Part shown: positions 4,200-7,041 of the stretch, one piece after another
How positions within the stretch are numbered: position 1 is the stretch's first letter
Layout of the letters: each line of letters starts with the position of its first letter
Virus record (IMG/VR): IMGVR_UViG_2690316109_000023
Strand: one strand, 5' to 3'
From: a virus
Taxonomy: Duplodnaviria > Heunggongvirae > Uroviricota > Caudoviricetes
Length of the DNA stretch: 7,041 nt
Translations under genes and position numbers: made by a program
Notes under the pieces: generated by a model
Seen by the model: the letters and a program-made list of their open reading frames with translations, nothing else
Databases searched by the model: none
What the model was told of the DNA's origin: nothing

Positions 4200-5844
4200 G
4201 TACGCAGAAGACGTAAAAACGGGCAAAATTCCGGCCTGTAAACGGTTAAAACAGGCTGTTAAACGGTACTTTTCGGACCTTAAAAGCCCCCTTTACACGT
4301 TCGATCGTGAGGTTGTGGAGCGGTTTATTGCCTTTTCCAGGGTGTGCCCGCACGTAAAAGGGCCGATGCGTGGCAGACCCATTGAGCTGGAGCCGTGGCA
4401 GCAGTTCGCCTTTGCGTGCATCCTCGGCTTTAAGGTTAAGGCCACCGGACGGCGCAAATACACGAGCGCCTTTATCGAAGTGCCGCGCAAAAATGCGAAA
4501 TCCACGACCGCCGCGATTCTGGCTGACTGGTTTCTGATTATGGAGAACGGTCAGCAGGATATTTACACCGCAGCGGTGAGCCGTGACCAGGCGCGGATCG
4601 TCTTTGATGATGCGCGTCAGATGTGCCTTTTATCCCGACCGTTACGCAGGCGGGTGAATATTCAGGCGCATAAGGTGATACACCCGAAAAGCAACAGCCT
4701 GTTAAAGCCGCTGGCAGCAAAAGCGGCAACCATCGAGGGAACAAACCCCAGCCTTTCCATCGTGGACGAATACCACTTGCACCCCGATAACGGCGTTTAT
4801 TCCGCGCTTGAGCTGGGGATGGGCGCACGTCCCGAAGGGCTGTTATTTGCCATTACCACATCAGGCAGCAACGTCGTTTCAGCCTGTAAGCAGCACTATG
4901 ATTATTGCTGCCAGATCCTGGACGGCGAAGAGGTTAACGATTCAATTTTTGTACTGATTTACGAACTGGACGACGAAAACGAGGTTGATGATCCGGCGAT
5001 GTGGATAAAGGCGAACCCTAATATTGATGTTTCCGTGGATCGTGAAAAACTGGCCTCAACCATCCAGAAAGCGCGGGGTATTCCGTCGCAGTGGGTGGAG
5101 ATGATGACAAAGCGATTTAATATCTGGTGTCAGGGGACTACCCCGTGGATGGGTAACGGCGCATGGGCTGAGTGTGCCGGAACGTTCACGGAGGAAGATT
5201 TACACGGCCAGGAGTGTTACGCGGGGCTGGATTTATCATCCACAAGCGATATTTCCAGCGTGTGCTATGCCTTTCCGGTCGGTAAAACCATTATGCTGGT
5301 TTCCCGTCATTATCTGCCGGAGTTCCAGCTACAGAACCCCGCCAATAAAAACCGCGCTGTCTATCGTCAGTGGGCTAAAGCAGGCTGGATACGCACAACG
5401 CCAGGTGACTGCATTGATTACGACCGGATCAGAGATGACATCATGCAGGACGCGGAGAAATTTAATATCAGGCTGGTGGGCTTTGATACGTGGAACGCCA
5501 CGCATCTCAGGACGCAATTACAGGGGGCTGGTTTTGAGGTGGAGCCGTTCCCGCAAACCTACCTCAGATTCAGTCCGGCGGCGAAATCGTTCGAAGTTTT
5601 TGTTAACCGCAGGGTGATTGTGCATCGTGGCGATCCGGTGTTGTCCTGGTCGATGAGTAACGTCGTGATGCAGAGTGACGCGAACGCCAATATCAAGCCG
5701 AACAAGAAAAAATCACCGAACAAGATAGACCCGAGCGTGGCGGCGCTGATGGCGTTTGGTACATTCCAGGCAGAGCATGAGGATTTTGCTTTTGATATAA
5801 GCGACAGCCACCGCCAGAAACTGGAAGAATTTAGCGGGGTGTAA
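4183..5844 (+). CDS. Terminase large subunit (HK97-type)
   Basis: 553-aa ORF of TerL size placed directly after terS. The first in-frame start is TTG at 4183, overlapping the terS 3' end by 17 nt; the next in-frame Met is ~60 codons downstream, so the TTG start is the likely one. Confidence 0.88.
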   Translation: MTAWNKYAEDVKTGKIPACKRLKQAVKRYFSDLKSPLYTFDREVVERFIAFSRVCPHVKGPMRGRPIELEPWQQFAFACILGFKVKATGRRKYTSAFIEVPRKNAKSTTAAILADWFLIMENGQQDIYTAAVSRDQARIVFDDARQMCLLSRPLRRRVNIQAHKVIHPKSNSLLKPLAAKAATIEGTNPSLSIVDEYHLHPDNGVYSALELGMGARPEGLLFAITTSGSNVVSACKQHYDYCCQILDGEEVNDSIFVLIYELDDENEVDDPAMWIKANPNIDVSVDREKLASTIQKARGIPSQWVEMMTKRFNIWCQGTTPWMGNGAWAECAGTFTEEDLHGQECYAGLDLSSTSDISSVCYAFPVGKTIMLVSRHYLPEFQLQNPANKNRAVYRQWAKAGWIRTTPGDCIDYDRIRDDIMQDAEKFNIRLVGFDTWNATHLRTQLQGAGFEVEPFPQTYLRFSPAAKSFEVFVNRRVIVHRGDPVLSWSMSNVVMQSDANANIKPNKKKSPNKIDPSVAALMAFGTFQAEHEDFAFDISDSHRQKLEEFSGV

Positions 5845-5857
5845 TGAGGTCAGCAGC

Positions 5858-6139
5858 ATGACAGAAGCCGAAATAACGGGATTAATCCGCCGCGTTGCCG
5901 GAATCAGCCAGCAGGCTGACGAACAGGCCACGCAGCCGGACAGCGTGACAGCCGAAAACTATGCGCGTGTTGTTGCTGAGGTGATGCGCCGTGATGGTAT
6001 AGAACTTAATGGCGTGGATATGCGCAACATACGAACCAGAGTTCTTGAGTTGCTGGCCTACCGTCGCCGCGTGGAGATGTATCGGGAGAAGGAGAAAATA
6101 ACGTACCACTGGAAGAAGCCGGAGCGGTTGCGGCGGTAA
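5858..6139 (+). CDS. Hypothetical protein (93 aa), last gene of the module
   Basis: ATG 5858 with GAGG 8 nt upstream, 13 nt after the terL stop. Charged, arginine-rich C-terminus. No recognisable domain. Confidence 0.5.
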   Translation: MTEAEITGLIRRVAGISQQADEQATQPDSVTAENYARVVAEVMRRDGIELNGVDMRNIRTRVLELLAYRRRVEMYREKEKITYHWKKPERLRR

Positions 6140-6289
6140 CTGGTTGATATTCCCGACGGACCAAAAATGGGTGGCTACATCCCTCGCTTCTGAGGACTGT
6201 TAACAAGCTGCCTGAAAGACAGTCACAAACTACGAAATTTTCGCAGTTTAATTAATGATCAGCTTAATCGCTAACCCGCAGATATTTTC

Positions 6290-6700
6290 GGAAACCTCAA
6301 TTTGAGGAAGTCGGCGCGGTAACTCGCTGAACTTTAAGCAAAGCGCAAAATTGCGCTTGCTGAATAATCATTATGATTACGCAGATGATTAAGGAATGAC
6401 CGAAGGCGGAAATTCGCCTGTGGTTAATGGGGGAGTTGCAGATCTGCAACTCGACCATGAAACTACGGAAACTACCCGTAGTTTGGGTAGTAAGAGTAAC
6501 ACCCAGATTTTGGGTCTTACTCGTGATACCCAAATTTGGGGTATCAGTGGCAACCATAACGACTTTCGTTACGGTTGATGCTTTTACCCCATTGGGGGAA
6601 AGGTATTACGATAATCATAACACCTACCGAACAGGTAAAGCCCACCAGCCTGATTAACGTTTAACCGGAAAAAAATTCCGGTAGGTGGGGATCCCCATAT
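6290..6700. other. Hairpin/palindrome-dense non-coding region
   Basis: At least ten dyad elements in ~400 bp: 6295-6307, 6341-6358, 6405-6418, 6433-6452 (perfect 20-mer), 6463-6491, 6494-6522, 6525-6545, 6551-6577, 6587-6597, 6664-6682, 6686-6697 (perfect 12-mer). ORFs in this region are rich in rare codons and lack RBSs. Confidence 0.6.
6433..6452. promoter_or_regulatory. Perfect 20-bp palindrome GAGTTGCAGATCTGCAACTC; candidate dimeric-protein binding site
   Basis: Exact reverse-complement symmetry over 20 bp, verified base by base. Confidence 0.4.
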
Positions 6701-6808
6701 CGACATTAACGCCCCTCATGAATTGGTGCGCTTCCCCCTGGAAAGATGATCCGCCTGTATATTTCTTGTGTCTATTTGTTCCACGTTGTTTCATACAGTG
6801 CACCGAAC

Positions 6809-6832
6809 GGTGTAGTCACTGGTGTAGTCATT
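6809..6832 (+). repeat. Tandem 12-bp direct repeat GGTGTAGTCACT / GGTGTAGTCATT; candidate recombinase arm-type or regulator binding sites
   Basis: 11/12 identical adjacent repeats about 75-95 bp inside the putative element end. Confidence 0.4.
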
Positions 6833-6876
6833 TTGCGATTTTTGGCACTTTTTGTGGTGCAAATTATTTAATTAAA

Positions 6877-7041
6877 TCAATTAGTTAGGTTAAATAAGTT
6901 ATATATAACAGCAATAAATAATGCGAGAATAAACGGCACGATGATCTCGGCGGCAAAACGGATACCGCAGAGAATAATGACCAGCATTCCCAACATAATG
7001 ACGATTTTTAGGCCATTGAGCGTGATGATCGGCTTTGCCAT
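6877..7041 (-). pseudogene. tqsA: 5' fragment of an AI-2E family transporter gene (tqsA/ydgG-like): about 45 native codons, then 9 foreign codons and a stop
   Basis: Minus-strand ATG at 7039-7041 translates to [45 protein letters not shown], then IYNLFNLTN and stop (TGA complement at 6877-6879). The hydrophobic N-terminus matches my recollection of E. coli TqsA. Sequence becomes AT-rich and non-coding exactly where the match ends (~6906). Confidence 0.55.

Follow-up and report, generated by a model that had tools for sequence, protein, structure and literature searches.

Tandem 12-bp repeats, an IHF-like site and a 9-bp core at the probable attachment-site arm of a cf-PICI-type satellite inserted in Escherichia coli tqsA

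Gene content and insertion site of the element

The window analyzed here, a stretch of 7,041 nucleotides from an IMG/VR virus record, is the right 7 kb of a cf-PICI-type satellite of about 15.3 kb (15,303 bp as a unit in E. coli PCN033, locus L001) that is inserted within E. coli tqsA, the gene for the AI-2 exporter. The 5′ fragment of tqsA occupies positions 6914–7041 on the minus strand, with its start codon at 7041. The satellite enters after about codon 45, and the frame truncated in this way continues into foreign DNA up to a stop at 6877. About the first 45 codons are lost from tqsA through the insertion. Because in-frame stops occur just inside the element at attL, the satellite does not restore the gene, and both halves are annotated as pseudogenes in RefSeq (PCN033, L001 4305–5215). 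In a megablast search of 5,426 complete E. coli genomes with positions 6400–7041, the tqsA part was found in nearly all, and junction-spanning sequence was found in 195 (approximately 3.6%). Literature searches that covered tqsA or attachment sites yielded no description of tqsA as a PICI site.

Two relatives, in PCN033 and in O157:H7 PV15-279 (L003, 99% identical to the window), include both ends of the element. The genes that RefSeq annotates between their tqsA halves encode a tyrosine integrase, an AlpA-family HTH protein, Icd-like proteins, a primase, an SSB, a PerC-like regulator, the major capsid protein, prohead protease, portal, head closure and head-tail connector proteins, an HNH endonuclease, TerS, TerL and a 93-aa ORF. 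No tail or lysis genes are annotated in this interval of either genome. Read from the RefSeq annotation of relatives 98–99% identical to the window, this is the gene content of a cf-PICI, namely 10–15 kb with int, alpA, replication, capsid and packaging genes and without tail or lysis genes. The gene set and its order are the same as those of EcCIEDL933-type cf-PICIs. EcCIEDL933 is induced by a helper phage and packaged in its own small capsids with helper tails (bioRxiv 10.1101/2022.09.08.507074).

A close relative in O157:H7 (L004), with packaging genes 96–98% identical, is located between roxA and phoQ. A catalogued phage was rejected as the identity of the element, given that megablast against a phage collection returned partial matches only, at 76–78% identity. 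Scanning genome contigs for the capsid protein identified 12 loci, and the GGTGTAGT repeat was present in none of those outside E. coli and Shigella, so the scan was of no help for distant comparison.

At positions 2240–2837, a 299-bp sequence is duplicated in tandem (2.0 copies, 96% matches), which is not the case in the closest relatives; the sequence at L003 13741–14039 occurs twice in the window. The duplicated segment runs from the 3′ end of the head-closure gene into the beginning of the head-tail connector gene, and one intact copy of each gene remains despite the duplication.

Another feature of the region is a cluster of four to five near-perfect hairpins in non-coding DNA at 6420–6600, upstream of the att arm, with RNA fold z-scores of −8.7 on the plus strand and −9.4 on the minus strand. 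The cluster includes three 15-bp palindromes of the form ACCC-N7-GGGT (6474–6488, 6501–6515 and 6528–6542) at a spacing of exactly 27 bp, a pattern with four matches in the window versus 0.12 expected, as well as the perfect palindrome GAGTTGCAGATCTGCAACTC. The 123-bp module at 6428–6550 occurs alone, at 91–93% identity, in otherwise diverged relatives (L037, L050, L071, L084 and L088), and also in some E. coli genomes in which nothing is annotated at that place. Homologues of the cluster are 91–100% identical, which is too similar to judge covariation in 6420–6560. The cluster has no Rfam match, and looks like an operator-like or protein-binding site array or a set of terminators. More generally, positions 5800–7041 had no match in an Rfam search at E ≤ 1, and therefore do not correspond to a known RNA.

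Tandem 12-mers and phased TTGT repeats

The arm is marked by a tandem 12-mer, GGTGTAGTCAYT, at 6809–6832, 73–96 bp inside the element end. Its copies, GGTGTAGTCACT (6809–6820) and GGTGTAGTCATT (6821–6832), both on the plus strand, are predicted to be arm-type integrase-binding sites 1 and 2. Nowhere else in the window do adjacent 12-mers agree at 11 or more of 12 positions; such pairs had a mean of 0.007 in 300 shuffles, only two of which contained any. An exact tandem pair, GGTGTAGTCACT GGTGTAGTCACT, occurs on the same strand at the other end of the element (L001 5340–5363, L003 3365–3388), separated by 128 bp from the core and by 23 bp from the downstream GTG start codon of int. Apart from these two pairs, a stretch of 40 kb contains no exact 12-mer copies, and those with at most two mismatches are at chance level.

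The similarity between the two arms spans approximately 65–70 bp and includes phased TTGTnnCn repeats. In the window there are three of these with 10-bp phasing at 6766–6793 on the plus strand (TTGTGTCT from 6766, TTGTTCCA from 6776 and TTGTTTCA from 6786), and the int-proximal arm has the same phased block beside its 12-mer pair, on the same side of the pair as in the distal arm. In the reconstructed attP, numbered from the overlap centre as 0, the TTGT repeats are at −144, −134, −124 and +89, +99, +109, the 12-mers are at −101, −89 and +132, +144, and int starts at +179. The extended arm similarity, the cf-PICI identity of the element and the disruption of tqsA all go beyond what a sequence-only reading of the window had proposed.

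Scanning IMG/VR for GGTGTAGTNNNTGGTGTAGT returned many related satellites along with unrelated matches, and conservation was counted in window coordinates over 28 distinct int-distal arms, 22 of which form a main group. Across the 28 arms, which include a diverged group whose flanks barely align, 20 of the 24 columns of the 12-mers are invariant (positions 1–8, 10 and 12 of each site), as are 18 of 30 columns of the TTGT block. Invariant columns are fewer in the far left flank (5/37 at 6729–6765) and in the T-tract stretch (6/24), and there are none at 6857–6874 (0/18) or 6888–6896 (0/9). The diverged group (L026, L037, L050, L084, L088 and the right arm of L100) keeps two copies of GGTGTAGTTAAT and, at the position of the TTGT block, three of TTGTTCG; all else differs.

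Sites of recombination directionality factors (RDFs) are, according to PMC7498355, typically direct repeats one helical turn apart. The TTGT repeats are for this reason candidate sites for an RDF of the AlpA family, or for another accessory factor. By analogy, binding by the AlpA-family protein of the element is possible, and we propose it tentatively.

Common core and overlap region

Comparison of attL, attR and the empty tqsA of K-12 defines a common core of 9 bp, ATAACAGCA, at window positions 6905–6913, where the element ends. The core is identical in attL, attR, attB and attP, and is found in L001 at 5203–5211 and 20506–20514 as well as in K-12 tqsA. In the orientation of the window, which is the minus strand of K-12, attB reads GGGTTAAGA-ATAACAGCA-ATAAATAATGCG, attL reads GGGTTAAGA-ATAACAGCA-TTTTATCATTTAGTG and attR reads AAGTTATAT-ATAACAGCA-ATAAATAATGCG.

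The relative located between roxA and phoQ has the common core GGACATATTT, and its attP core is a perfect inverted repeat round 7 bp, TGATAAAA-GGACATA-TTTTATCA. Registered on the TTTTATCA half-site, the tqsA-type attP core is TTATATAT-AACAGCA-TTTTATCA, an imperfect inverted repeat. TTATATAT (6899–6906, plus strand) is accordingly a candidate core-type Int site, C, as the imperfect inverted partner of TTTTATCA across the overlap in attP. A third core type, in L084, is GATAGTT-ATTTATCA. Registering these three att types on the conserved TTTATCA half-site, we deduced that the strand-exchange (overlap) region is probably the 7 bp AACAGCA at 6907–6913; the identity blocks of the tqsA and roxA/phoQ types intersect in exactly these seven overlap positions.

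A natural excised form with an attP junction exists. The metagenomic contig IMGVR_UViG_3300045988_152974 (L105; 11,098 bp) has a 119-bp terminal direct repeat, indicating that it is circular (10,979 bp), and it carries, in order, the distal arm, ATAACAGCA, the proximal arm and int, with 343 of 350 positions identical to the reconstructed attP. L105 has the int/replication half and the right 0.75 kb in common with the element, and a different packaging module. As L105 is a classical-type PICI, the same int/att module serves both classical-type and capsid-forming PICIs. This is consistent with the six attB sites known for cf-PICIs, four of which are common to classical PICIs (bioRxiv 10.1101/2022.09.08.507074). 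L084 (1–300 and 10380–10780) has an attP junction at its start and attR with host DNA at its end, as if the element were inserted in tandem or the assembly had combined its excised and integrated forms.

AT-rich spacer and IHF-like site

The 72-bp spacer between the repeats and the core (6833–6904) is 76% A+T, compared with 47% for the window. It includes two T5 tracts, 11 bp apart, at 6838–6854 on the plus strand (ATTTTTGGCACTTTTTG), which may act as an intrinsic bend or simply as a spacer; the T-tract stretch is partly conserved in the main group, with 9 of 24 columns invariant. A terminator-like hairpin at 6845–6860 was considered and rejected because its stem is not kept in relatives (L001 GTGA vs GTGC).

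Following a stretch of A/T only (6861–6874), the plus strand has an exact match, AATCAATTAGTTA at 6875–6887, to the IHF consensus WATCAANNNNTTR, 18–30 bp inside the element end. The sequence-only reading had described a tandem 12-bp repeat followed by very AT-rich DNA with a fit to the IHF consensus, all within about 100 bp of the junction, and each of these features is borne out at the positions given here. There are two exact matches to WATCAANNNNTTR in the window versus 0.23 expected, and an exact match taken alone is only suggestive. The second match, TATCAACCAGTTA at 6137–6149 on the minus strand, is at the end of the 93-aa ORF and is kept in L001, L003 and L004.

It is the comparative data on related arms that indicate that the match is more than chance. 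The 22 main-group arms include 20 distinct versions of the IHF-like site with 15 different N4 sequences. WATCAA-N4-TTR is matched exactly by 15 of the 20 versions and with one mismatch by five (CTA in L055; AATTAA in L090; ATTCAA in L086, L100 and L114). ATCAA and TT are kept, and the N4 spacer and the nine bases 3′ of the site vary. Over the last 400 bp, the window and its closest relative, L003, differ at eight positions, all within 6855–6894 and none in ATCAA or TTR. The tqsA and roxA/phoQ att types have unrelated cores, and in each of them 26 bp separate the IHF-like site from the overlap. The consensus is absent at this position from L026, L037, L050, L084, L088 and the right arm of L100 itself. 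In the reconstructed attP, the site lies at −35 to −23, and a one-mismatch IHF-like site is found at +66. IHF is needed by P4, whose int regulatory region contains a high-affinity site for it (PMC7286903). As in P4 and PAI I536 (PMC7286903), IHF may bind and bend the DNA at 6875–6887, and recombination may depend on it.

Integrase and arm recognition

The integrase encoded beside the att site (L001 5387–6616) is a tyrosine recombinase with a separate arm-DNA-binding domain, as expected for an enzyme that uses arm sites: Pfam domains Arm-DNA-bind_3 (PF13356, E = 1.4e-18), Phage_int_M and Phage_integrase (PF00589, E = 2.9e-16) were identified. The integrases of the tqsA and roxA/phoQ elements (the latter at L004 2909–4138) are 91% identical, and 17 of their 36 differences fall in residues 1–60. 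The repeats of the two elements differ at positions 9 and 11 (GTCACT vs GTTAAT). The tqsA Int, with GTCACT arms, has K36-Y37-L38...K42, and R36-H37-S38...L42 occurs both in the roxA/phoQ Int and in the more distant Int of L084, both with GTTAAT-type arms. The AlpA-family protein WP_000953272.1 is identical in the PCN033 and roxA/phoQ elements despite their differing repeats. This covariation, in a small sample of two repeat types and three integrases, favours Int over AlpA as the probable binder of the 12-mers. Together with the domain architecture of Int and homology to P4, it is the basis on which we assign the 12-mers to Int.

The two 91% identical integrases use different cores, ATAACAGCA in tqsA vs GGACATATTT between roxA and phoQ. 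At least three further flanks are found behind the same arm in IMG/VR contigs (right ends of L017, L028, L075, L078, L086 and L114), which suggests natural retargeting of core specificity.

Comparison with known systems

The closest parallel to the proposed arrangement is that of P4. The P4 Int has the same three domains as the Int of the element, and a tandem pair of 12-bp sequences, named 'attP arm sequence repeat' in the P4 record, is present on each arm in direct orientation. The int-distal pair of P4, GTGGGGGCACAA AAGGGGGCATAT, is 53 bp from the core (72 bp in the element), and the int-proximal pair, ATTGGGGGCATA ATTGGGGGCATC, is separated by 112 bp from the core and by 15 bp from the downstream int ATG (128 and 23 bp in the element). 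P4 also has an A/T-rich spacer with a near-consensus IHF motif, and its RDF is an AlpA/Vis-family protein. The two systems differ in that their integrases are only 23% identical, the repeat sequences are unrelated (TGGGGGCAYA in P4), and P4 has extra single copies, one of them inverted at the int start. The 20-bp P4 core is at the 3′ end of a tRNA-Leu gene, which is restored, whereas the 9-bp core of the element lies in a coding gene, which is disrupted.

The proposed layout follows the same logic as lambda, in which Int is heterobivalent, arm-type sites occur in tandem, IHF binds between these and the core, the overlap is 7 bp long and the whole spans 250–300 bp. The lambda H′ site, TATCAATTTGTTG, is located between the core and P′1. 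AGTCACT of the element repeat is also found in the lambda arm site P2, and GGTCACT in P1 and P′1. However, the arm-binding domain is of another family, the arm sites differ in number and orientation (lambda P2 is inverted), and the IHF-like site of the element has, relative to the core, the opposite orientation to lambda H′ and H2, a difference that counts against the proposed model. It is the 3′ end of int that adjoins att in lambda, and the 5′ end in the element. In the lambda and KplE1 nomenclature, the attL that adjoins int is B-O-P′, which makes the window arm the P arm.

The IntS-TorI systems of KplE1 and HK620 are similar in that attL overlaps the int regulatory region, and in KplE1 the arm-type sites lie beside RDF sites, with negative autoregulation (PMC2951348). 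The phased repeats and the arm pair upstream of int in the element match that layout. In KplE1 the arm-type sites of IntS overlap its own promoter and repress it (PMC2951348). KplE1 differs in having a tRNA gene as its target, and in the element a promoter scan found no sigma-70-like promoter upstream of int.

Tandem GGTGTAGTAAnT repeats occur beside Tn916-like int genes in many unrelated IMG/VR gut-phage contigs (L018, L021, L025, L032, L041, L046, L107, L111, L112 and others), about 300 bp or less from one end of the integrase gene, mostly the 3′ end. Their first eight bases are the same as those of the element repeat. The arm-binding domain of Tn916-family integrases is of a different family (Integrase_DNA N-domain) from that of the element Int (PF13356). 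Among the integrases of these contigs two were scanned against Pfam, with the Tn916-type N-terminal DNA-binding domain (PF02920) scoring above the cut-off in L032 and weakly, below the cut-off, in L025. As the contigs were retrieved with a pattern that included GGTGTAGT, selection may explain the shared 8-mer. In a weaker variant of the retargeting reading given in the Discussion, the GGTGTAGT half of the repeat would reflect a mode of recognition shared with Tn916-type arm-binding domains.

Discussion

Our best explanation is that window positions 6766–6913 are very probably the integrase-distal arm and core of the att site (attR when integrated) of a cf-PICI-type satellite in tqsA. The sequence-only reading had likened the layout to the arm of a tyrosine-recombinase attachment site, and had proposed looking for the same repeat and a short duplicated core at the other boundary, and defining the core by comparison with an empty tqsA. 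Both were found: the tandem 12-mer recurs in the same orientation in PCN033 and PV15-279, and ATAACAGCA is present in attL, attR and K-12 tqsA. The arm reading is further supported by the PF13356 integrase, the P4 attP layout, the circular attP junction and the pattern of conservation. From these observations we infer which protein binds which site, the exact cleavage positions, the autoregulation of int and the role of the TTGT repeats.

We propose that Int is heterobivalent, with its Arm-DNA-bind_3 domain at the N terminus followed by a central core-binding and a catalytic domain. The N-terminal domain would bind the two 12-mers GGTGTAGTCAYT in the window and the identical pair 132–155 bp away across the core, and the C-terminal domains would bind the imperfect inverted half-sites round the 7-bp overlap AACAGCA. 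IHF at AATCAATTAGTTA (6875–6887), 26 bp from the overlap, would bend the DNA sharply and fold back the P arm, possibly aided by the phased T-tracts at 6838–6854. This bend would bring arm-bound Int to the core to form an intasome in which the arm pairs are linked to the core half-sites through Int, and strand exchange would follow across AACAGCA. The TTGT repeats beside each pair may bind the AlpA-family protein as an excision factor. Given that the int-proximal pair is 23 bp upstream of the int start, Int probably represses int as well, as its counterparts in P4 and KplE1 do; Int and Vis of P4 are reported to repress int in work cited in PMC7286903. As no promoter was found upstream of int, autoregulation is proposed by analogy only.

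A different reading of the 12-mers is that they are operators for another protein of the element (the AlpA-family HTH protein, the PerC-like regulator or a repressor) controlling int and a rightward or outward transcript, rather than arm sites for Int. The position of the int-proximal pair, just upstream of int, is plausible for an operator, and cf-PICI induction needs AlpA (bioRxiv 10.1101/2022.09.08.507074). A pure operator model does not account for the second pair, which lies at the far end of the element and has no gene downstream of it there. In addition, AlpA is identical where the repeats differ (GTCACT vs GTTAAT) while the N-terminal domain of Int changes with them, and P4 has the same arrangement with annotated attP arm repeats, so that we consider operators improbable. 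Even less probable, to the point of being nearly negligible, is that the repeats have no function and are left over from a duplication common to both ends. The block of 65–70 bp shared by the arms does resemble an old duplication, but within it only the 12-mers and the TTGT repeats are invariant in lineages with diverged flanks, and decay without selection would be uniform. In HNH-dependent cos systems, cos adjoins terS. A cos or packaging site was therefore rejected as an identity for the repeats, which are also duplicated at the int end; the position of cos is not given in the cf-PICI paper (bioRxiv 10.1101/2022.09.08.507074).

For the spacer, an alternative is that the IHF match is a by-product of A/T-rich composition, and that bending is due to intrinsic curvature of the T-tracts or to a Fis- or HU-like nucleoid protein. 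Such a match is likelier in A/T-rich DNA, another exact match lies 760 bp away (6137–6149), the diverged group is without the consensus here, and five main-group versions have one mismatch. Against this, ATCAA and TT are kept while the four intervening and nine following bases vary freely, the 26-bp distance to the overlap recurs with two unrelated core types, and the use of IHF is known for P4-type integrases (PMC7286903). We regard the by-product reading as unlikely.

The arm block (TTGT repeats, 12-mer pair and IHF-like site) could also be a fixed cassette, with integrases more than 90% identical being retargeted naturally to several cores through substitutions that cluster within a short segment of the arm-binding domain and within the core-binding domain. 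The cores in this case would be tqsA, the roxA/phoQ intergenic region and the at least three further IMG/VR flanks. We offer this as a speculation that is more likely to be wrong than right. If true, the retargeted family would be a natural series in which to work out, or re-engineer, the arm and core specificity of P4-type integrases.

The mechanism itself adds nothing new to the P4 and lambda paradigm, being that of a P4-type arm in a known satellite family. In the published cf-PICI and E. coli PICI work that we found, the att arms are not dissected. The exact right boundary of the satellite and its recombination core are now fixed, and the satellite inactivates the AI-2 exporter gene tqsA in approximately 3.6% of complete E. 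coli genomes. The result is a concrete attP map, with two arm pairs, an IHF-like site and a 7-bp overlap, for an integrase family of classical and capsid-forming PICIs, and this map is useful for the annotation of satellite boundaries and for integration vectors.
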